Shown in pieces: positions 4,522 through 56,648 of a DNA stretch of 64,000 bases. The DNA is from Octopus vulgaris (taxonomy: Eukaryota), in assembly GCA_951406725.2 (NCBI GenBank), contig OX597816.1, positions 140,864,001 through 140,928,000 on the forward strand. Direction: 5' to 3'. The stretch's first letter is position 1. The number at the start of each line of letters is the position of its first letter. The position numbers were made by a program, and so were the translations under genes. Under the pieces are notes generated by a model. It searched no databases. It was not told the origin of the DNA and saw nothing but the letters and a program-made list of their open reading frames with translations.

Positions 4522-4640
4522 AATAATCACTTAGAGTTCTGAAGGGCAGCGAAATTACAATATAACTATAGTTCCTTTTTAGCAATTACATATTCTTTTC
4601 TCTCATGATTTTTAATGAAATATTGTTTGTTCTTCCCTAG

Positions 4641-6672
4641 AGATGCTGATTTACAGAAAGCTATAGCAGCTTCTATAGAAGATGAGGTCCAACATCAGCA
4701 AGCATTAATGAAATCAGAAGGGGAAAAGACTGTCAGAAAGGAAAAGTCTGAAAACAACTCTACTAAGCCTTTACCAAAATTAAGCTTGAATGAAGATTTT
4801 CCAAGCCTTCCGTCTGCTACTGGAGTTAATAATGATCAAAGCACATTCCAAACCCGTTGGGCTACTCGATCAAATCCACATAACTTAGCTAACAATATGG
4901 TTGAAGAATTTCCATCATTAACATTGAACTCTTCATCAACTGTTAATGCTGAGGTGAAACCAAGTCTTAAAACTTACATTAGTAAGAAGAAAGAGACAAA
5001 CTCTCATAAACAGAAACAACCAGTTTTATTTGAAGAAGACTTCCCTCAGTTAGCAACCTCAAATAAGAAAAATAATTCTGCCAATCATGCCTCTGGTACA
5101 CAACCAAATGTATGGACCAAAAATACAAAGCAGCAACCCAAAAAGCAAAAGCAAACAACATTCAATTATAGAGTACCTATGAATATTGATTCAACCGATA
5201 TAAGTCAATTATCACACACAATGCCAGTGTCTGTCAACACTAAGCAGCAGACCAATGTGAAACAACCAAGTGCCAAAGACCAAAGCAGCAATAAGCAAGC
5301 GTCTAGTGCTAAACAGTTTGCCGGTGTTAAGCAACAAACTAATAATTCTAAGCAACAGGCCAGTAATAAACAAGCCAGTAATAAGCAACAGAGTAATAAT
5401 AAACAAACCAGTGCTAAAGCAAATGATATGTCACCTGTTGTAACATTGAAAGATGTTAGCAAATTATTAGATAGTGAAGAAAACTTCCCAAGCTTAACAA
5501 ATAAGAAGAAAAGTCAAGAAAACAATGTTCCTGTTGCTACTTGGCCTATTAAAAAACCTACTGTAAAAAACTCAGAAGAAAAAAAATCAAATTCTTTTAC
5601 TGGGAGCCTTGTGTTGAAAAGTAAAAAGAATAAAGAAAAAAATTCTTCTACAGAAAAGGTGTCATGTGATTCATCAACTAAAGATGTAAAGAAACCTGTA
5701 CCTGCTGCTGATTCTTCTGAAAGTAGTGCTGCTGCCTCCGACCCTGATAGCTCAAGAGGGAATAGTAAAAGTTGTGTGGATTGTGTGATACAGTTAAATG
5801 GTAAAGCAGAGTTGGATGAAGGTAGGGCTGATAAAATAGGTAAAAACTGGGAAGAGTCAGATGTAAAAGCTGACACAAAGCGAAACACAAGTAATAAACA
5901 GCTTGATGCTAGACCCAAAGAATTTACTGTTCAAAATATACTGTCTGAAGAAGATTTTCCTGCTCTTTGCAAAAATGACAAACTTGCACAGGGATCAAGT
6001 TCAAAAACTTCTGTGAAACCACCTCCTGGTTTTGCAGGTTTCCCTAACAACAAAGACAGTAGTTCAGCCTATAAATCTTTACTGCCCCGACCTCCACCAG
6101 GCCTTTCATTGTCAAATTCTGCAATTACTAACTTTCAACAAGCACTAACTGGTCAACATCCAATAAATGCAACCCTTAAATTTAATTACTGTCCCCCTTC
6201 AAATTTTGTGGGACGTAACCGACAATTGATCACTGAGATTCGCACTGCTCTTTCCAATGATGAAAATCGTTTTGACACTTTTAAATCATTATCTCAAGAT
6301 TTCCGTCATGGTGTAATCTCATCCCAAGAATACTATCGACAGTGTTTTGATTTACTTGGGTCTGAAAACTTCCCTAATATTGTTCAAGAACTTATTGCTC
6401 TTTTGCCAGATATTGCTAAGCAACAGGCTTTATTTGGGGTTCATCAAGACAACTCCGCCACACATATTAACACTGCTTCAAAGCATGTTTGGACTTCAAA
6501 GGAGAACCTTCTCCAGAGTTGCCACGTCTGCCAACAAGTACTTTCTCAATCTGACTATAAGGCACACATTTCTCTCTACCATCAAAATAGTGACTTCACA
6601 TGGGATTCTAGAGAGCCATCTTCATGGTCATGTGGTAATTTTCAGAATACTAGTTTGGTTAAGGCAAAATAA
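4641..6672 (+). CDS. ZNF598: ZNF598/Hel2-type E3 ubiquitin ligase, large terminal exon (disordered middle, GYF-binding PPPG motifs, PAH-like domain, C-terminal C2H2 finger)
   Basis: Polypyrimidine acceptor ttcttccctag| at 4640, then ~2 kb open frame to TAA. Five (E)E(D/N/E)FPxL motifs, PPPGF and PPPGL, a 'RNRQLITEIR...FKSLSQDFRHGVISSQEYY...ELIALLPDIAKQQAL' block and CHVC-x12-H-x4-H match the ZNF598 C-terminal architecture. The N-terminal RING/ZnF exons lie upstream of the window. Confidence 0.85.
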
Positions 6673-10724: not shown

Positions 10725-11030
10725 CATGGCTTAGTGGTTAGAGTTTTGTGCTCACAATCATGAGGTAGTGAGTTCAATTCCCAGACCAGGCCATGTGTTG
10801 TGTTGTTGAGCATGGCATTTTCTCACATTTCTCCAGTTCATTCAGCTGTAGAAATCAGTTGCAACATCACTGGTGCCAAGCTGGTATCAGCCTTTGCCTT
10901 TCTCTTGGATAACATCAGTAGTATGAAGAGGGGAGGCTGGTATACATGGGCGACTTTTGGACTTTCATACAACCCTGCCCAGACTTGTGCCTCGTAGGGT
11001 AAATTTCTAGGTGCAATCCCACTTATTCAT
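10725..11030 (+). mobile_element. tRNA-derived SINE, family C
   Basis: TGGCTTAGTGGTTAG A box and GAGTTCAATTCCC B box followed by a conserved-looking core; related fragment at ~53480-53640(-). Confidence 0.6.
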
Positions 11031-12949
11031 AGCTAGGGTGAAGACCCTAGCTGTGTATAAGTATGTGTGTTTGGGTAGTTGTATATGTGTGAGAATAAAT
11101 GCTTATATGTATGGATACTTTTTGATTCTCTTGAGAGACAATGAAAGGAACACGGCTATAGAACTGTAACCTGCCGGGATACTTTAAAATAGAGAAACAA
11201 GTACAAGTTTGTTTATGCTTGTGTGCATGCACACAACCTGCACTCCAACCAAATGACCCCCTCCCCCAAATTTAAACCCAATGAAATGTATCCATACACT
11301 CATGATTATACTAATGTGTTTATGCTCTTGGAAAGCTATATGTATATATTCAGTTAATTTGTTCCCTCTATTCAGTTTGTTTCTGTTTATCTTTCTACTT
11401 AAAGTCCTCATGTATTGACTGATACTAACACACAAATGTGTTTCCATATGCAAAGCAGTCACACTTAAATGCAAACACATACACATGCATACACATATAT
11501 GCAATTACTGAGATTTCTCACTCACGTCCCTAAAATGTTATCATTTAATGTCCATCCTCCAAGCTGATAGGATTTCTATAGCTGGATGCCCTTCCCAACA
11601 CCAAACATTTTTTTTTTAGTGTGTACTGGATCTTTTCTCTTGCTACAGGTACTAGTGAGGTTGCCAAGTAACTTTGAAGTCAAGAAAGTACAGTAAAAGA
11701 AAAAAGGAACTCAGTACATCAAGCTCGGACGCACCACGATGCCTGGTGCAACTAGAGCATGTCATTGATGGAGTCATAAATGATAACAAAATGACTGACA
11801 AGCAATTATCCAAGCAAATGATTAGTTGATTGGCTAATTAGTTAACTAGTTGATTAACAACAATTCTTTTGAATTTTGGCACAAGGCCAGTGGATGTGAC
11901 ATAACTATTCTTTTCTATTCTAGGTACAAGGCCCGAAATTTTTGCAGAGGATGTCAGTCAATTAGATCAACCCTAGTATGTAACTGGTACTTAATTTATT
12001 GACCCCGAAAGGATGAAAGGCAAAGACAACTTTGGAATTTGAACTCAGAATGTAAAGACAGACAAAATACCACTAAGCATTTCGCTCAGCATGCTAATGT
12101 TTCTGCTAGCTCGCCACCTTAAAGAACCCCTTCTACTCTAGGCACAAGGCCCGAAATTTTTGGGCTGAATTTGAACTTAGAATATAAGTTGTAAGAAAAA
12201 CAGGTTTTCCATTGGTCTAACAATTCTGCTAGTTTGCCACCTTAAGTTGACAAGCAATAATACAAAATAAAGTGAAAAAGAGAACCAGTGCATGTGTTTC
12301 TATTGGCCAAATAGTCGTCCAAAGATACAACATATCATTTAACACCCACTTTTCTCTACTGGGATCAGAGAAAATTTGTTAAGACGTATTTTCTATGGTA
12401 GGATGCCCTTCCAGTTGCCAACCCTCACCTGCTTCCAAGTTAATATTTCCCATGGCTAGAGACATGTTTTTTTACAGAGGACTGGAAAGGGAAAAAATAT
12501 GACTTGTGTCAATGGTACACATACATTATATATATATAATGTATGCTATACACACACATGCACATAGACACAGACAGTCTTCTTCCAATTTCCACCTGTC
12601 AAATCTACTCACAGGGCCCTAGTTGGCCTGCAGCTATAGTAGAAGACAAAGGTGTCACATAGGAGGATAAACAATTTAACAGTAAGCTTTTACAAGCGAT
12701 ATATGTGTGTGTCTGTGTCCCCTTATCTTGACAATGATAGTTGTAACCAAATGTCACTGTCTTACAAGCAATGTACTTTATTTCCAGTCTTCCATGAAAA
12801 TATGTCCAGCCAAGAGGAAATATCACCTTGCTTGGAAATGAGGGTTGGTGACAAAGGGTATGCAGCTGTAGAAAATCTGCCTCCACAAATTCTGTCCGAC
12901 CCATACTAGTGTGGGAAAGTGGATGTTGAAACAATGATGATATATATAT

Positions 12950-19073: not shown

Positions 19074-19117
<44 letters not shown>

Positions 19118-19233
19118 CATCATCATCATCATCGTTTAACGTCCGTTCTCCATGCTAGCATGGGCTGGACGGTTCGACCGGGGGATCTGGGAAGCCAGAA
19201 GGCTGCACCAGGCTCCGGTCTTATCTGGCAAAG

Positions 19234-19517
19234 TTTCTACAGCTGGATGCCCTTCCTAACGCCAGGTCCAACATTTCTCTCAGGGTACTAACACTCTGTC
19301 GAGCATGCACACTGACATTACACATCCATCGGAGCATACTGGCTTCATTTCTCACAAGCTTATGCATGTCCTCAGCAGTCACGGCCCATATTTTCCTGCC
19401 ATGTAGCATGGCTGTTCGTACACATGCATCATACAGTCTGCCTTTTACTCTGAGTGAGAGGCCTTTAGTCACCAGCAGAGGTAAGAGCTCCCTAAACTTT
19501 GCCCAGGCTACATATAT

Positions 19518-19584
<67 letters not shown>

Positions 19585-19615
19585 AGCATAGAAGGTGAAC
19601 ATTAAATGATGATGA

Positions 19616-19651
<36 letters not shown>

Positions 19652-20159
19652 ATATGATTTAACTTATCAAACACAGTTCAACAAATTCATTATGTAAATG
19701 GATATTTATGTAAATGTAAGATGCTAAAATGGATTATAGTTTTTATTTCTTATGTTGCTATATAATTTGTTTCATACAGAAAGACAGGGATATTCAGAAA
19801 GTACTCGTTGGTAGCTAAGATGAAAACTAAAAAGACATTAGAATTACATGGGTATGGTGTTATTAATCATTTTGTAATGTGTTCTTGTTCTTGGAGTTAT
19901 GTCTATTTTAAACAAGACTTAATAACACCATAAACTTAGAACTTAGATATGTTTCGACCAGAGATTGGTCCAGGCCATGTCTAACTTAATAGCACCACCT
20001 GTATTCTTTCAGTTTCTGTCTATCAAATCCACTCACAAGGCTTTGGTTGGCCTGAGGCTATAGTAGAAGACACTTGCCAAAAAGTGCCACGCAGTGGGAC
20101 TGAACCTGGAACCATGTGGTTAGTAAGCAAGCTACTTATCACACAGCCACTCCTGCATC

Positions 20160-20197
<38 letters not shown>

Positions 20198-21191
20198 ATA
20201 ATAATAATATTAGGGAGTAAATCCAAACTTACAGGGAAAAATTAGATTTAGGATTAAATCTAATTTTATAGTATAAATATATATTATATTAAATTAGAGA
20301 TAAAACCACTATTAGGCAAATCAAACAGTGAAAATCATAAGCCAATACATAGAAATAAAATTAATTAAAAAATATGTAAAAAATATAAAATATAAAATAT
20401 AAAAATCCAATTAAAATTTTAAAAAAATTTATTTAAATTAATAATTTAAACTTATAAATTAAAATATATATATATTTTTATTATTATTTTATTTAATTTT
20501 TTCTTTTTTCTTTTTAATACTATCAAAAAGTATTAAAAGTTTAAATAAATAAAAAAATAATTAAATAAAATAATAATAAAAATATATATATATTTGTAAG
20601 TTTAAATTATTAATTTAAATCATTTTTTAAAAAATTTTAACTTTAATTTAAATATTTTAATTGGATTTTTATATTTTATATTTTATATTTTTTATATATT
20701 TTTTAATAAATTTTATTTCTACGTATTGGCTTATGATTTCCACTTGTTTGATTTGCCTAATAGTGGTTTTATCTCTAATTTAATATAATCATCATCATCA
20801 TCATCATCATCGTTTAACGTCCGCTTTCCATGCTAGCATGGGTTGGACGGTTCAACTGGGGTCTGGCAAGCCCGAAGGCTGCACCAGGCCAGTCAGATCT
20901 GGCAGTGTTTCTACAGCTGGATGCCCTTCCTAACGCCAGGTCCAACATTTCTCTCAGGGTACTAACACTCTGTCGAGCATGCACACTGACATTACACATC
21001 CATCGGAGCATACTGGCTTCATTTCTCACAAGCTTATGCATGTCCTCAGCAGTCACGGCCCATATTTTCCTGCCATGTAGCATGGCTGTTCGTACACATG
21101 CATCATACAGTCTGCCTTTTACTCTGAGTGAGAGGCCTTTAGTCACCAGCAGAGGTAAGAGCTCCCTAAACTTTGCCCAGGCTACATATAT

Positions 21192-21254
<63 letters not shown>

Positions 21255-21825
21255 AGCATAGAAGGTGAACATTAAATGATGATGATATTTATATATATAT
21301 ATATATATATATAAAGTATATGATTTAACTTATCAAACACAGTTCAACAAATTCATTATGTAAATGGATATTTATGTAAATGTAAGATGCTAAAATGGAT
21401 TATAGTTTTTATTTCTTATGTTGCTATATAATTTGTTTCATACAGAAAGACAGGGATATTCAGAAAGTACTCGTTGGTAGCTAAGATGAAAACTAAAAAG
21501 ACATTAGAATTACATGGGTATGGTGTTATTAATCATTTTGTAATGTGTTCTTGTTCTTGGAGTTATGTCTATTTTAAACAAGACTTAATAACACCATAAA
21601 CTTAGAACTTAGATATGTTTCGACCAGAGATTGGTCCAGGCCATGTCTAACTTAATAGCACCACCTGTATTCTTTCAGTTTCTGTCTATCAAATCCACTC
21701 ACAAGGCTTTGGTTGGCCTGAGGCTATAGTAGAAGACACTTGCCAAAAAGTGCCACGCAGTGGGACTGAACCTGGAACCATGTGGTTAGTAAGCAAGCTA
21801 CTTATCACACAGCCACTCCTGCATC

Positions 21826-21860
<35 letters not shown>

Positions 21861-22601
21861 AATAATAATAATATTAGGGAGTAAATCCAAACTTACAGGG
21901 AAAAATTAGATTTAGGATTAAATCTAATTTTATAGTATAAATATATATTATATTAAATTAGAGATAAAACCACTATTAGGCAAATCAAACAGTGAAAATC
22001 ATAAGCCAATACATAGAAATAAAATTAATTAAAAAATATGTAAAAAATATAAAATATAAAATATAAAAATCCAATTAAAATTTTAAAAAATTTATTTAAA
22101 TTAATAATTTAAACTTATAAATTAAAATATATATATATTTTTATTATTATTTTATTTAATTTTTTCTTTTTTCTTTTTAATACTATCAAAAAGTATTAAA
22201 AGTTTAAATAAATAAAAAAATAATTAAATAAAATAATAATAAAAATATATATATATTTGTAAGTTTAAATTATTAATTTAAATCATTTTTTAAAAAATTT
22301 TAACTTTAATTTAAATATTTTAATTGGATTTTTATATTTTATATTTTATATTTTTTATATATTTTTTAATAAATTTTATTTCTACGTATTGGCTTATGAT
22401 TTCCACTTGTTTGATTTGCCTAATAGTGGTTTTATCTCTAATTTAATATAATCATCATCATCATCATCATCATCGTTTAACGTCCGCTTTCCATGCTAGC
22501 ATGGGTTGGACGGTTCAACTGGGGTCTGGCAAGCCCGAAGGCTGCACCAGGCCAGTCAGATCTGGCAGTGTTTCTACAGCTGGATGCCCTTCCTAACGCC
22601 A
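19234..22601. repeat. ~1.67-kb tandem duplication (two near-identical units)
   Basis: 19265-20938 matches 20939-22601; the differences I can see are (TA)n and homopolymer lengths. Confidence 0.95.
20283..20789. repeat. ~500-bp extremely AT-rich imperfect palindrome (second copy 21947-22452)
   Basis: ATTATATTAAATTAGAGATAAAACCACTATTAGGCAAATCAAACA pairs with TGTTTGATTTGCCTAATAGTGGTTTTATCTCTAATTTAATATAAT; centre ~20525. Confidence 0.9.
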
Positions 22602-23846: not shown

Positions 23847-24121
23847 CAGGTGGCACGTAAAAAGCACCCACTACACTCGCGGAGTGGTTGGCGTTAGGAA
23901 GGGCATCCAGCTGTAGAAACACTGCCAGATCTGACTGGGCCTGACGAAGCCTTCCAGCTTCACAGACCCCAGTTGACCCGTCCAACCCATGCTAGCATGG
24001 AAAACGGACGCTAAACGATGATGATGATGATGATGATGATATGTATGTATGTGACCGCATGTGTACCGTTGGCGAATTTTTTTCCTCCATCCTCCCTTCT
24101 CTAGATCTTTCCTTTTTCTAT

Positions 24122-24156
24122 GTTTCTGACGAAGAGATCCACTCGAAACGTAAAAC
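24122..24156 (+). ncRNA. Minimal type I hammerhead ribozyme (PLE-type)
   Basis: GTTT-CTGACGA-A-GAG atcca CTC-GAAA-C G-TA-AAAC: stem I GTTT/AAAC, intact core, stem II GAG/CTC, palindromic ACGT stem III. It lies in a ~180-bp repeat (24069-24245) also present at 55645-55832(-). Confidence 0.7.
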
Positions 24157-25980
24157 CCTCCTTCTTCCCTTCCTTCCTGAGCATCCAATAATACTATATT
24201 TGTTCCATGTTCTCACGTTGTTGTGTTTTCATGTTTGGATTAACTATATATATATACATACATACATACATATACATATATATATATTATTATTATATAT
24301 ATTACGTATATATTATTATATATATATATATATATGTTATTATATATATATATATAATATTGTATATATATATTATATATATATATATAATACTACCAAA
24401 CGCCTCCTGTCCATTGGATGGTTTGTTTAGATGAAGGGGTTAACTTGAATAGTGTTATGGAAGTTTTAATCATCTGAGGGACAGGCCATAAGGATTACAA
24501 AAATAACGATTCTCACTTTGAAATTGACAGTTTTGAAAATCTTTTTAGATTACGGTACACTCCACTCTCTCATGTATTCATGTTTAAAATTTCAGCGTGA
24601 TCAGATGAACAATACTTGAGTTTTAAGCGCACAAACAGACAGACAGAATGGGATTTATATATTATATTATATATATATATATGAGAGATTTCTTTCAGTT
24701 TCTATGAACTAACTATGAACTAAGTTCACTTGCAAGGCTTTAGTTTGCTTGGTGTTATAGTAGGAGTTACTTGCTTAAGATGCAACACTGTAGGTCTGAA
24801 CCTGAAACCATGTAGTGTGGGTGTGTATTCTCAAACACTAGATAAGTACTAAACATGAACAGAAAATCAAAGCAAACCATGGAAAAGTCCAAAGTGGAAA
24901 CACCATTTTCCAATATTAATGTATGTATGTATATATATACATATTATGTATGTATGTATACATATATGTATATATCATCAATTTACAAGCTTAAATCAGT
25001 GTTTATGATATTTCAATCAAATCTCTAAATAGCATTTTAAATTATAATAAAAGTGTATTTTTGTCATTCATTTTTATTATTCTACATTTATTCAAGTTGG
25101 AAAAGGGTACGGTTTTAAGTGATACTATTATGGAAGTGAAGAACACTGAATATTGAGGTGATGGAAATTTTAGAATGAAGAATGATATAAAGTTGTTTTG
25201 AAATGTAAGTCATACTTTTAAACAAAATGATCATATCGCTCTGTGAGCAGAAAAAGTAAGATCAGTCTGGTTAGTTTTTACTTTTCATAGTGCGTCATTA
25301 AAGAAAGAAAGACCAACCCCATCTTCTCATCTACAGTGTAACCCCTTTGGTTACTTTTCACAGAATTCGAAAGGTATAGCTTACACTTCAGACTATTAAA
25401 AACTGTTATATAGTACACAATGAATTTATTGATCAAGTCTTATCTTCATAAAGCTGACCAGAATACAGAGGAATTATTAATGTCTGCAAATTTTCAAAAT
25501 GCATATTGAAAAATTAAGTGAACAAAAAGAATGGAGGATTAACCTTGAGCCAGTCATACATTGTCTGTTTTCTCTGGTATTAATAGAAAATATAGAAGCA
25601 AAAGATTTTGCTTCTACAGCTGAACACAGCTGTAGAATAAAACACAACAAATACTACTGATTAAATAATATTTATAATTTATAATGTTGTCCATGGATTA
25701 CAAAATGTTGAATTGATTTGAATTAATAGTTAATTAGAAATAAAAATGGTTTTATCAGATTTAAGTCTTTGTATGATAGAGGCTTACTTCAAGTGTTTGT
25801 ACAATGTTTAAAGGATAATAGCAGGAAATTATTGTATTCATGACCAAAAGATTAAAATAATCAATAATCCATGTCCAAAATATTTCTAACTTAGTTTTAG
25901 TTTAAATTTGGATGTTAGAAACAGAAAAGAACTGTTTAAGTTGTCCAGAATTAGCACAGCGGCAACTGTACATCATAAAA

Positions 25981-51780: not shown

Positions 51781-52945
51781 AGGGCCTTAGAGTTAATTTA
51801 GCAAAGACCAAAGTCCCAGTAAGTAGGAAAACAGACATATCACTGATCCCTTAAGGGAGATGGCCCTGCTTGTTATGTAGGAAAGGTGTTGGTAGAAATC
51901 CATATGGTGTGCCGAGTGCAAGCTATGGACACATAAGAGGTGCAGTGGTACCACAGGAAGATTAACAGGGAAAGCAGCTTTTGTGTGCAGCAGATGTGCA
52001 GGTTCATTATACACTAGGAACGTACAGAAAATAGACTCCCTCAAATGCCTGTGGGGAGCCTTAGAAGTAGTAGGCAATTTCTGTTACTTAAGTAAACAAG
52101 TTAGCAGTGAAGGAGGTAGTTCTAAAAGCATACTTGCAAGAATAAGAATGGGTTGGACAAAATTCAGAGAACTACTACCTTTCTTAGTATTAAAGGGCCT
52201 CTCTTTCAGAGTGAAAGGCAGATTGTATGATACCTATGTATGAACAATTGAGCTACATAGCAGTGAGACATGGGCTGTGAGTACTGAGGACATGCAAAGG
52301 CTGGAAAGAAATGAAACCAGCAAGCTCTACGGGATGGGTGATGTCAGTGTGCATGTACAACAGAGTGTAAGTGATTTGAGAGAAAAACTGGGTATATGAG
52401 GCATCAGATGTCATGTGGAAGAGAGCAGACAGTGCTGGTATAGTCATATGATGTGTATGGATAGAGGACAGCTGCATCAAGAAGTGCTGATGTCTCATTG
52501 AGAAAGGAAAGTGTGGAAAGAATAGACCCAAGAAGATGTGGAATGAAGTGATGAGAAAGGACTGAGTCTTCTGGTGGTTTGCTGTGCTTGAAAAACACAT
52601 CAAGCTAAGTAAAATCATGATTGTCCATACAAGCATGTCCACTACATCCCTCTCTCAGCTATGTGGTCCAAGTTTTGCAGGCTCATGGGTGCTGGTGCCT
52701 TGTAAAAGCCCCCATGCTGGTGACATATAAAAGCACCTGTGCCAATGCTACATAACAGCATCTGTACCAGTGCCATGTAACAGTATCTGTGCCAGTGCTA
52801 TGTTAAAAGCACCCAGTACACTCTATGAAGTGGTTAGCATAAGGAAGGGTATCCAGCCATAGAAACCATGCTAAAACAGACAAAATGGAGCCCAGGCCTG
52901 CTTCTGTCAAACTGTCCAACCCATGCCAGCATGGAGAATAGTCAT
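51781..52945 (+). mobile_element. Older RTE LINE 3' fragment
   Basis: ARIRMGWTKFRELLP..KGRLYD, plus tail with CCATGCCAGCATGG. Confidence 0.85.
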
Positions 52946-52955
52946 TATGTACATT

Positions 52956-53444
52956 ATTTACATTTGATGGATATTTGTCCTCATCTTGTTTGTTGTTAAC
53001 ATGTTTTGGTTGATATACCCTCCAGCCTTCATCAGGTGTCTTGGGGAAATTTCGAACCTGGGTTCTCATTCCTAAGCTATTTTTTTGATGTTATTAGTAT
53101 TATTATTATTATTGCTATTATTATTCAGGTCACTGCCTGGAATCGAACTCACAATCTTGGGGTTAGCAGCCCGTGCTCTAAAGCACTATGCCATATGCCT
53201 GTGGGCATACGGCATAGTGGTTAAGACTGCAGGCTACTAACCCCAAGATTGTGAGTTCAATTCCAGGCAGTGACCTGAATAATGATAAAAATAACAATAA
53301 TAACAACAACAACATCGAAAAATACCTTAGGAATGAGAACCCAGGTTCGAAATTTCCCCAAGGCACCTGATGAAGGCTGGAGGGTATAAACTGAAATGTG
53401 TTAACAACAAACAAGATGAGGACAAGTATCCGTCAAATGTAAAT
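52956..53444. mobile_element. ~490-bp palindrome: head-to-head tRNA-like SINE units, each ending in a hammerhead-like motif
   Basis: Arms are reverse-complementary around ~53201. Each has GGCATAGTG(G) A box, GAGTTC(A/G)ATTCC B box, an (AAT)-rich linker and CACCTGATGAAGGCTGGAGGGTATA. Confidence 0.8.
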
Positions 53445-53855
53445 CATGATTATTATTATTATTATTACTCTTTTTTTTGCAGTTCTCATGGAGATTCAGT
53501 GTGACACAGAATGTGATAAAGCTGGTCCTTTGAATTACAGGTACAAATCATTTTTTGTCAGCTGAGTAGACTGGAGCAATGTGAAATAAAGTGTCTTGCT
53601 CAAGGACATGTGCTGCTGTGAATTGGCAGCTATTAAGCCATGCATCTTCACAGAACATTAGTAGATGATGTTGGAGTTTGATTGTGTATGACTTGATGCT
53701 AATTGGTAGAATGACCCATAATTGGATATGGTCTAGGATTTGTGTGTGCATGTATGTGTGTGTGTATGTGTGTGTGTGTGTGTCTGTGTCTAGCAGCAGT
53801 ATCATCCAAGATGTGAGAGCAAAGGAGGAATAAAGAAAAAAAGAAAAATACTTAC

Positions 53856-54399: not shown

Positions 54400-54920
54400 A
54401 ATAAAATGATAATATTGACAACCAAAATACCAAACAGAACCAATCCCTCCAGTGCCCAATGTACACAAACCAACAAAATAAAACAGTTATGCCCACACAG
54501 AGATAGATCCAGCTGCCCTTTGGATAGCCAATGTATAACTAAGAACGTGGTATACAAGTGCACTATAAACACTAGAAGTCCCCTACATATATATTGAGGC
54601 ATCATTCAGTTTTTTTCAAAAACCGATACCACAACCACATTGCCAGCTTTCGAAATATCCTTAAACAATGTGTAACATCACTGGCCAATTTTATCAGGAG
54701 GCTTAAGGAAGCAAAGACAAAATACGACCTTACATGGTCCATACTTAGACATGCGAGTCCCTACAACACTATATCCTGCAAATGCCAATTATGCTCTGAG
54801 GAGTCACTATTGATAATGCTAACAAAGGAGCGCATTATAAATAAATTCACTGAACAATTACCCAGATGCCTACACACAGCTAAACATACATTCACATATT
54901 ACAATCTAGACCATACATAA
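54400..54920 (+). mobile_element. Penelope-like element 3' fragment (Cys-containing GIY-YIG endonuclease)
   Basis: CPLDSQCITKNVVYKC...IY*G, then KNRYHNHIASFR...WSIL...PY...CQLCSEE...IN...RCLH; one stop and a frameshift. Confidence 0.85.
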
Positions 54921-55022: not shown

Positions 55023-55154
55023 ATATGTATGTATATAATATATCTGTATATGTATGCATATCTATATGTATATATATATGTGTATATATGTGTGTATATG
55101 CATATATGTGTATGTGTATGTGTGTATATGTATATATATATATGTGCCTGTGCA

Positions 55155-55191
<37 letters not shown>

Positions 55192-55609
55192 GTATATGTC
55201 TGCATATTCATCTGTGCGCATTTGCATTTTTGTAGGTGTATGTATACATTAGTGTGAATTTGTGTATACATTTATGCGGGCATGTGTTTATGCGTGTATA
55301 TGCATACATATATGTATGCGTATGTGAATATGTATATGCGTGTATATATTTACTTATGTGTATACACAAGTGTATTAACACGCGTGTGTATGTTGAACTT
55401 TGCACAGACGTCTTTATTTTGCTTTACATAGGAATATATGCACATATTTCTGTATGCTATGTACGTATATTTATGTATATATACATGTGTACCTGCATAT
55501 ATGAATTCCTATACATATATATGCATGTATTCGTCCATACGTGTGCGTATGCGCGTGTATCTAGTTGTATGTACATACCCATATACTTGGATGTACCTGT
55601 GAGCACATA

Positions 55610-55645
<36 letters not shown>

Positions 55646-55831
55646 GTTAATCCAAACAAGAAAGCACAAAAAAACACAACAACGCGAGGACGTGAAACAA
55701 ATATAGTATTATTGGACGCTGAGGAAAGAAGGAAAGAAGGAGGGTTTAACGTTTTGGGCGGAGCTCTTCGTCGGAAACATAGGAGAAGGAAAGATCCAGA
55801 GAAGGGAAGACAGAGGAAAAAAAATCGCCAA

Positions 55832-55873
<42 letters not shown>

Positions 55874-56027
55874 GTTTGTATCTGTGTATGTATATGTCAT
55901 CCGACGAAACTCTGCCCAAAACGTTAAACCCTCCTTCTTTCCTTCTTTCCTCAGCGTCCAATAATACTATATTTGTTTCACGTCCTCGCGTTGTTGTGTT
56001 TTTTTGTGCTTTCTTGTTTGGATTAAC

Positions 56028-56061
<34 letters not shown>

Positions 56062-56479
56062 TATGTGCTCACAGGTACATCCAAGTATATGGGTATGTAC
56101 ATACAACTAGATACACGCGCATACGCACACGTATGGACGAATACATGCATATATATGTATAGGAATTCATATATGCAGGTACACATGTATATATACATAA
56201 ATATACGTACATAGCATACAGAAATATGTGCATATATTCCTATGTAAAGCAAAATAAAGACGTCTGTGCAAAGTTCAACATACACACGCGTGTTAATACA
56301 CTTGTGTATACACATAAGTAAATATATACACGCATATACATATTCACATACGCATACATATATGTATGTATATACACGCATAAACACATGCCCGCATAAA
56401 TGTATACACAAATTCACACTAATGTATACATACACCTACAAAAATGCAAATGCGCACAGATGAATATGCAGACATATAC

Positions 56480-56516
<37 letters not shown>

Positions 56517-56648
56517 TGCACAGGCACATATATATATATACATATACACACATACACATACACATATATGCATATACACACATATATACACATATATATA
56601 TACATATAGATATGCATACATATACAGATATATTATATACATACATAT
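55023..56648. repeat. ~750-bp near-perfect inverted duplication (55023-55775 / 55900-56648)
   Basis: Direct comparison; ORF-track translations of the two arms are almost identical on opposite strands. Confidence 0.95.

Follow-up and report, generated by a model that had tools for sequence, protein, structure and literature searches.

The palindromic insertion that spans positions 52948 to 53439/53444 of the window, by which we mean the whole 64-kb stretch of Octopus vulgaris DNA analyzed here, is probably a decayed pair of copies of one octopus repeat: a non-autonomous derivative of Penelope-like elements (PLEs) that combines a tRNA-type promoter with a minimal hammerhead ribozyme (HHR) motif and that was inserted head-to-head. 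Repeats of this family are abundant in octopus, short (~245 nt), and non-coding.

Anatomy and age of the palindrome

As the preliminary description held, the locus is a ~490-bp palindrome, composed of two ~245-nt arms that are 87.9% identical over 248 columns and are separated by a 4-nt central loop (53200..53203). Three pairs of inverted segments make up the structure: 53081-53199/53204-53322 (85%), 53014-53084/53318-53388 (97%), and 52937-53015/53385-53463 (82%). The left arm (52948..53199, minus strand) comprises a tRNA-like head, an AAT linker, a body, a broken HHR, and a 3′ part whose end is a twice-repeated 9-nt unit, and the right arm (53204..53444, plus strand) has the same anatomy, with its final 5 nt (53440-53444) compatible with both the element and the target. 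In the right arm, the (AAT/AAC)n linker occupies 53276..53320 (plus strand); its left-arm counterpart lies at about 53082-53127. No head-to-tail repeat of the unit is present at the locus, and the 64-kb window contains no third copy of the arm.

Aligned over 247 columns, the two arms show 20 transitions, 7 transversions, and 4 gapped positions, and the 27 substitutions in 243 columns correspond, by hand calculation, to a Jukes-Cantor distance of 0.12, or 0.06 per arm. At a rate of 0.0036 per million years, taken from PMC13282606, the arms would be roughly 13-17 million years old (~17 at this rate, ~13 if the linker is excluded); the same paper reports a SINE/LINE burst at 18 million years. Two sites within the HHR read TG in one arm and CA in the other, as would be expected of former CpG dinucleotides that have decayed in both arms. 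An assembly fold-back artefact is ruled out by the divergence of the arms (27 of 243 columns), by this reciprocal CpG decay, and by flanks that are not inverted.

The proposal that read-through of the palindrome would yield double-stranded RNA is supported by its predicted fold, a single hairpin of -357 kcal/mol (z -42) that none of 100 shuffles equaled, and at the center of the palindrome the 10 bp flanking the 4-nt loop form a DNA hairpin. Matches to the Rfam families MIR5048 and mir-607 fell far under their gathering scores and were discarded as reflections of this hairpin.

Hammerhead motifs at the locus and in the family

Each arm carries a minimal type I hammerhead motif, and both of these local HHRs are broken. 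In the right arm (53362..53402, plus strand), CUGAUGA at 53367-53373 is followed by an extra A and by G10.1 at 53375, and the left-arm copy lies at 52998..53040 (minus strand). Neither local copy has the full set of features of a PLE-type minimal HHR, and neither folds as an HHR (z +1.04 and +0.87). Rfam at default settings reports no HHR in the arms, and our minimal-HHR descriptor has 0 matches in the 64-kb window, with neither arm passing. A model built from 28 related HHRs scores the arms at a non-significant 11.2 and 10.7 bits (E 0.44 and 0.6; ranks 4 and 5 of 20).

Family-level data were drawn from the contigs of 4 of 24 listed runs, representing three organism labels and four studies, with the right arm and its flank serving as the reference for contig placement. 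The runs yielded 22,449, 17,723, 24,580, and 3,827 placed contigs, counts that include the neighboring SINE, and in the three larger, DNA-type runs the summed depth over the body and the 5′ half of the HHR is near 1e6, a value that is distinct from copy number; as a rough inference, the family numbers 10^4-10^5 copies. Family contigs are also found in the run guessed to be RNA, where their presence shows neither Pol III origin nor editing. The contig data skip the head, the linker, and the outer end as repeats, and the linkage of head to HHR and the frequency of the head-to-head form are read from one locus; none of the listed pieces bridges the head and center, and strand changes number 0 among 15 of 51 joints, which is no evidence either way.

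In these contigs the majority base at 53363 is A (G53363A, 98-99% of depth), yielding a stem I of GACAC/GUGUU. Loose ends at the arm indels, present in all four runs (142, 117, 179, and 39 contigs, agreement 0.76-0.90), supply by consensus what the arm lacks: stem II (GGCUG/CAGCC) is followed by GAAA, after which come the palindromic ACGU and a cut site of GUU. Assembled, the majority motif has a 5-bp stem I, CUGAUGA, one extra A, a stem II of 5-6 bp closed by G10.1-C11.1, and GAAA, and it reads as a complete Penelope-type minimal type I HHR that matches the four marks by which PMC4209133 defines the minimal HHRs of metazoan PLEs (an extra base at 9-10.1, G10.1-C11.1, a palindromic 15.2-16.2, and a short stem I). 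The 3′ half of the HHR is spanned by ~1% of family depth, and the majority there is drawn from hundreds of contigs, not from all copies. A descriptor of this kind occurs once per 60 window shuffles, or ~3e-5 per arm, for a majority motif that was fitted by eye. The consensus that the preliminary description had guessed from the two damaged copies, including GAAA, agrees with the family contigs in 4/4 runs. Its related suggestion, that each copy had lost different residues, is only partly right: two lesions are common to both arms, the replacement of a G by A within stem II and the deletion of 3 nt at the cut site.

Core conservation, which had been proposed as a check on the family, is high: across 53367-53375 the sole position listed as variable is N7 (7-13%), and the core is otherwise invariant at the 10% level. 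Because the variation listed is confined to N7, the one position at which the fold tolerates change, this pattern suggests selection on the HHR motif.

Insertion site and origin of the pair

The whole arm pair sits within one interrupted target, the 3′ end of an older high-copy retroelement that we take to be of RTE type. The left part of this target (52787..52947, plus strand) aligns with 10 other window copies of this 3′ end as far as the point where the tail begins and is cut just before the ATG-repeat tail, and the 3′ end resumes on the right (53440..53469, plus strand) with TAAAT followed by ATG/ATT repeats. TA flanks the insertion on both sides (52946-52947 and 53440-53441), the right TA lying inside a 5-nt microhomology, and at this single locus no target-site duplication (TSD) extends beyond these 2 nt. 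The outer ends do not form symmetric terminal inverted repeats, the left arm exceeding the right by 8-13 nt.

The pair interrupts one target, and its arms share two lesions that depart from the family majority, namely the stem II G-to-A change and the absence of 3 nt at the cut site. The most likely origin of the pair is therefore a single fold-back event in which one template was copied, the simplest reading; the shared lesions would also be compatible with a minor subfamily or with conversion between the arms. The divergent dimer proposed for this locus is thereby upheld, the pair having been inserted as one unit.

The same cannot be said of the role assigned to the ribozyme. The preliminary description envisaged transcripts that end in the HHR and are processed by it. 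Both arms extend 40-50 nt past the HHR cut site, and because of this continuation a transcript of the element would not end in the HHR. Processing by the ribozyme is likewise doubtful, because a cleaved 5′ product would lack these 40-50 nt; the template, moreover, appears to have lost its cut site, and for an anole PLE PMC11167929 describes HHR cleavage as dispensable in vitro, with mutants inserting normally and uncut RNA as the main substrate. If the shared lesions were already in the template, this insertion needed no cleavage, in agreement with the anole PLE. As to function, the HHR most likely serves as a conserved signal in cis or as a regulator that depends on dimerization, rather than as the maker of the 3′ end of the transposing RNA.

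The best surviving alternative, though an unlikely one, is that a tRNA SINE mobilized by LINE machinery captured a piece of a PLE pLTR, in which case the HHR would be a passenger and the palindrome a one-off inversion. The size, head, and copy number of the element are indeed SINE-like, a short tandem unit closes the left arm, and the insertion falls in the tail of a LINE-type element. A passenger HHR, however, would not need a core that is invariant at the 10% level except at N7, and the 3′ part of the arm matches neither the LINE-type repeats of the window nor the 3′ end common among them. The TSD of at most 2 nt and an inversion that begins exactly at the head, with a hairpin junction, also argue against LINE mobilization.

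The tRNA-type head and related hammerhead loci

In keeping with the Pol III head proposed previously, A and B boxes stand in tRNA spacing in both arms, at 53139..53193 (minus strand) on the left and at 53210..53264 (plus strand) on the right. The A box-35 N-B box pattern has three matches in the window, comprising both arms and a repeat at 10727, and 0 in 100 shuffles. When the T of the A box is set as tRNA position 8, the anticodon-like loop (CT-GCT-AA in the left head, CT-ACT-AA in the right) falls at tRNA positions 32-38. The HHR motif lies ~160 nt downstream of the A/B-box head in each arm, and no run of four T is found inside either arm. Neither Rfam nor ARAGORN reports a tRNA in either arm at default settings; under relaxed settings, ARAGORN assigns a tRNA-Ser(gct) to the left arm, but spurious genes appear at that threshold as well. 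The tRNA-type promoter geometry is evident in both arms, and the putative tRNA origin rests on this box geometry. Elsewhere in the window, a decayed tRNA-headed SINE-like copy (10727-11040, plus strand) has equal A-B box spacing and a different body.

For comparison, a pattern scan over 7 of 64 parts of a metagenome collection provided 119 loci with the same HHR grammar; these were picked by the core letters of this family, and only their stems, inversions, and flanks count as independent evidence. Both stems covary: in 28 distinct motifs with a stem II of at least 4 bp, from 120 examined, 86% of cells are paired, a level reached in 0/500 shuffles. An inverted copy extends over the HHR in 22 of the 119 loci and is centered upstream of the HHR in 18 of the 22; with two redundant pairs dropped, the upstream-centered fraction is 16/20, and three of the other four are centered inside the motif. 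Head-to-head HHR palindromes are thus ordinary for this motif class, and the tRNA head is the unusual part: A/B boxes were found upstream of 0/106 other HHR motifs with at least 250 nt of upstream sequence, and 1/112 on the control side. Relaxed ARAGORN returned 6 matches in the 119 loci, at a threshold that gives spurious calls too.

Beyond AAT repeats, the arm has no homology to the 119 metagenome HHR loci, and searches with the family pattern recovered 0 copies in metagenome contigs; further copies also numbered 0 in viral contigs and 0 in plasmids, and all four matches in prokaryote genomes were rejected as chance (19-31 nt). Five of the metagenome loci (L059:459-674, L069:1444-1659, L090:243-466, L096:247-471, L070:1358-1604) are palindromes of ~220-250 bp, each with two back-to-back minimal HHRs and a center 15-22 nt upstream of the core, and are likely PLE remnants of animal hosts.

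A second alternative is that the locus is a private chimera in which a fragment of a tRNA-SINE head joined a common, promoterless PLE pLTR fragment and was folded back, leaving the head foreign to the HHR family. If the arms derive from one template, as is probable, the linkage of head and HHR has been seen once, the contigs are silent over the head and the linker, and the 0/106 result points in the same direction. We nevertheless judge this improbable: blastn gives no match between the head and the other tRNA SINE of the window, and head, linker, and body are joined without a visible seam or TSD. The head-linker-HHR palindrome is also probably a common octopus repeat.

Penelope-like and other repeats of the window

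A PLE partner for the element is plausible. PLEs account for 6.83% of the assembled O. vulgaris genome (PMC13282606), and no autonomous PLE that shares the 3′ part of the arm was found in the 64-kb window. A GIY-YIG fragment at ~54480-54920 (plus strand) is the frameshifted, decayed 3′ end of a C-terminal-endonuclease PLE with a cysteine linker. A full scan identified 1,778 relatives of this fragment at E 0.001 or better, and a word search none; by eye, its long relatives contain RT-like motifs, the cysteine linker, and the nuclease end, and Pfam GIY-YIG matched only weakly, in 1 of 7. Although the fragment lies only ~1 kb from the palindrome, we rejected it as kin of the element, as the two have no DNA in common.

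The window is repeat-rich, and several other features were recorded. A second, unrelated repeat with a minimal-HHR-like motif occurs at 24068-24250 and again as a tail-out inverted pair at 55.6-56.0 kb (55645-55835, minus strand; 55895-56030, plus strand). Among all matches to the HHR model this repeat scores highest (14.6 bits, E 0.04); it ends in (TA)n, and no tRNA head was seen on it. A 1.6-kb inverted duplication (55023-56648), 94.9% self-complementary with flanks included, is centered on the second HHR pair and could be either a PLE-type fold-back with captured flank or an assembly error. At 53481-53608 (minus strand) lies a fragment of another very high-copy repeat, presumably the main octopus tRNA SINE, whose summed depth is above that of the palindromic family. 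A direct duplication of 1.8 kb (19105-20938 and 20783-22601; 98.4% identity) is either a recent tandem duplication or an uncollapsed haplotype. Finally, a single 2-kb exon at 4609-6672 (plus strand) encodes the C-terminal 687 aa region of ZNF598, with 100% identity over 258 aa to an O. vulgaris protein and 83% to Argonauta.

Proposed mechanism and significance

The reading of this locus as a decayed, head-to-head double copy of a tRNA-promoter, HHR-bearing PLE derivative suggests the following course of events. A pLTR-derived, HHR-bearing 3′ part may have gained a tRNA-derived head, which would have released the element from dependence on tandem copies, without which PLEs and retrozymes have no promoter. 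Pol III would transcribe from the head through the HHR, with no run of four T within the arms. A PLE reverse transcriptase-endonuclease would then copy the element RNA in trans: it would nick AT-rich DNA and prime cDNA synthesis on uncleaved RNA, at a point 40-50 nt beyond the HHR. The 5′ end of the cDNA could fold back on the short head palindrome and be recopied, giving rise to two tail-out arms. The last steps are visible at the locus itself: a single older 3′ end is interrupted by the pair, with at most a TA duplication and unequal outer ends, and decay of both arms has followed.

Movement by a DNA transposase is very improbable. A near-perfect palindrome with TA on both sides could suggest a MITE or foldback DNA element, two inverted units moved by a Tc1/mariner transposase, but the outer ends differ in length by 8-13 nt, the right TA belongs to a 5-nt run compatible with the element as well, and DNA transposition would not keep the HHR core. 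Least probable of all is a cycle like that of Sm-alpha or retrozymes, in which the HHR cuts tandem transcripts, the RNA is circularized, and the palindrome is a by-product, since despite the two modules shared with Sm-alpha and the complete HHR of the family majority there is no head-to-tail repeat, the arms are not permuted at the cut site, beyond which they extend for 40-50 nt, and one HHR per strand would be unable to dimerize in cis.

More tentatively, the PLE derivative described here may stand for an entire class of PLE-dependent SINEs with a tRNA promoter and a minimal HHR, for which the head-to-head dimer is the normal form and which would number roughly 10^4-10^5 loci among the octopus species. 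Such a class would be a clear instance of a Pol III SINE whose partner is a PLE and not a LINE. The usual definition of SINEs has them rely on LINE enzymes, and a tRNA-headed element with a PLE HHR and inversion would, if correctly interpreted, extend the SINE partnership to Penelope-like elements and suggest how elements of the Sm-alpha type move. Octopuses also belong to a group of animals in which A-to-I editing is notably extensive. If insertion as a dimer is the rule, each transcribed copy would be a ready-made long hairpin, with implications for ADAR editing and small-RNA control, and a PLE-dependent SINE class would be a genome-wide source of 240-bp RNA hairpins, comparable to built-in inverted Alu pairs.

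The PLE papers leave open both the role of the minimal hammerhead and how inverted copies form; with its 245 nt and thousands of natural variants, the octopus unit would offer a minimal substrate on which to address these two questions. The octopus family may already be annotated with its ribozyme unnoticed, because 893/900 recently active SINE families in the octopus catalogue are unclassified (PMC13282606).

Comparison with known systems

The preliminary description overstated the novelty of the combination, as its components are already known separately: a Pol III promoter with an HHR in Sm-alpha/Sj-alpha, head-to-head inversion in PLEs, and HHR-bearing PLE derivatives in retrozymes. Ohshima and Okada reportedly described the octopus tRNA SINEs OK, OR1, and OR2 in 1994. 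Compared by description, the element is like these in its tRNA-derived head, genus, and high copy number (PMC4758252); the passages on OK, OR1, and OR2 mention no ribozyme or palindrome, and the element may be identical to one of them. The literature searched, which took in few subscription papers and lay apart from Dfam, Repbase, and SINEBase, held no report that unites a tRNA head, a minimal PLE-type HHR, and a head-to-head arrangement, and no HHR-bearing short repeat or SINE from octopus; for the giant squid, the genome paper gives a count of 235 HHRs and no particulars.

One close likeness is to canonical EN+ PLEs. Like their pLTRs, the family majority has the extra base at 9-10.1, the G10.1-C11.1 pair, the palindromic 15.2-16.2, and the short stem I, and the locus likewise has an inverted copy with a palindromic junction, a pair of HHRs on opposite strands, an AT-rich target, and no clear TSD. 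As described in PMC4209133, PMC3846280, PMC8557442, and PMC11167929, PLEs have inverted 5′ copies with opposite-strand HHR pairs 100-700 bp apart and a tail at one end that is usually 30-40 nt, and PMC3846280 identifies head-to-head palindromic junctions as the most frequent PLE inversion and reads them as self-priming. The octopus element differs in that it has a tRNA-type internal promoter and no ORF, in that both arms reach the head and neither is 5′-truncated, and in an end asymmetry of 8-13 nt as opposed to 30-40 nt.

Animal non-LTR retrozymes, non-coding 150-400-nt repeats with type I HHRs, have been proposed to be non-autonomous PLE derivatives (PMC7229834, PMC7761336, bioRxiv 10.64898/2026.07.22.740005). 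These sources present them as head-to-tail tandems, said to be promoterless, with circular RNA, whereas the octopus element has A/B boxes and is inverted, and the locus contains no head-to-tail HHR tandem.

In the accounts of PMC6765202, PMC2770079, and PMC8490949, Sm-alpha/Sj-alpha of Schistosoma consist of a Pol III-type promoter followed by an HHR, in tandem repeats, and a tRNA-Gln-derived SINE is described as similar to Sm-alpha. The octopus repeat is likewise short, non-coding, and high-copy, with a Pol III-type promoter and then a type I hammerhead, a likeness of modules as described. Sm-alpha, in contrast, is arranged head-to-tail, and cleavage by its canonical HHR has been demonstrated, whereas the octopus pair is head-to-head with a minimal PLE-type HHR. 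By its arrangement the element belongs neither to the retrozymes nor to Sm-alpha; by analogy, it would resemble a PLE pLTR provided with a SINE head, and also Sm-alpha in the modules that the two share.
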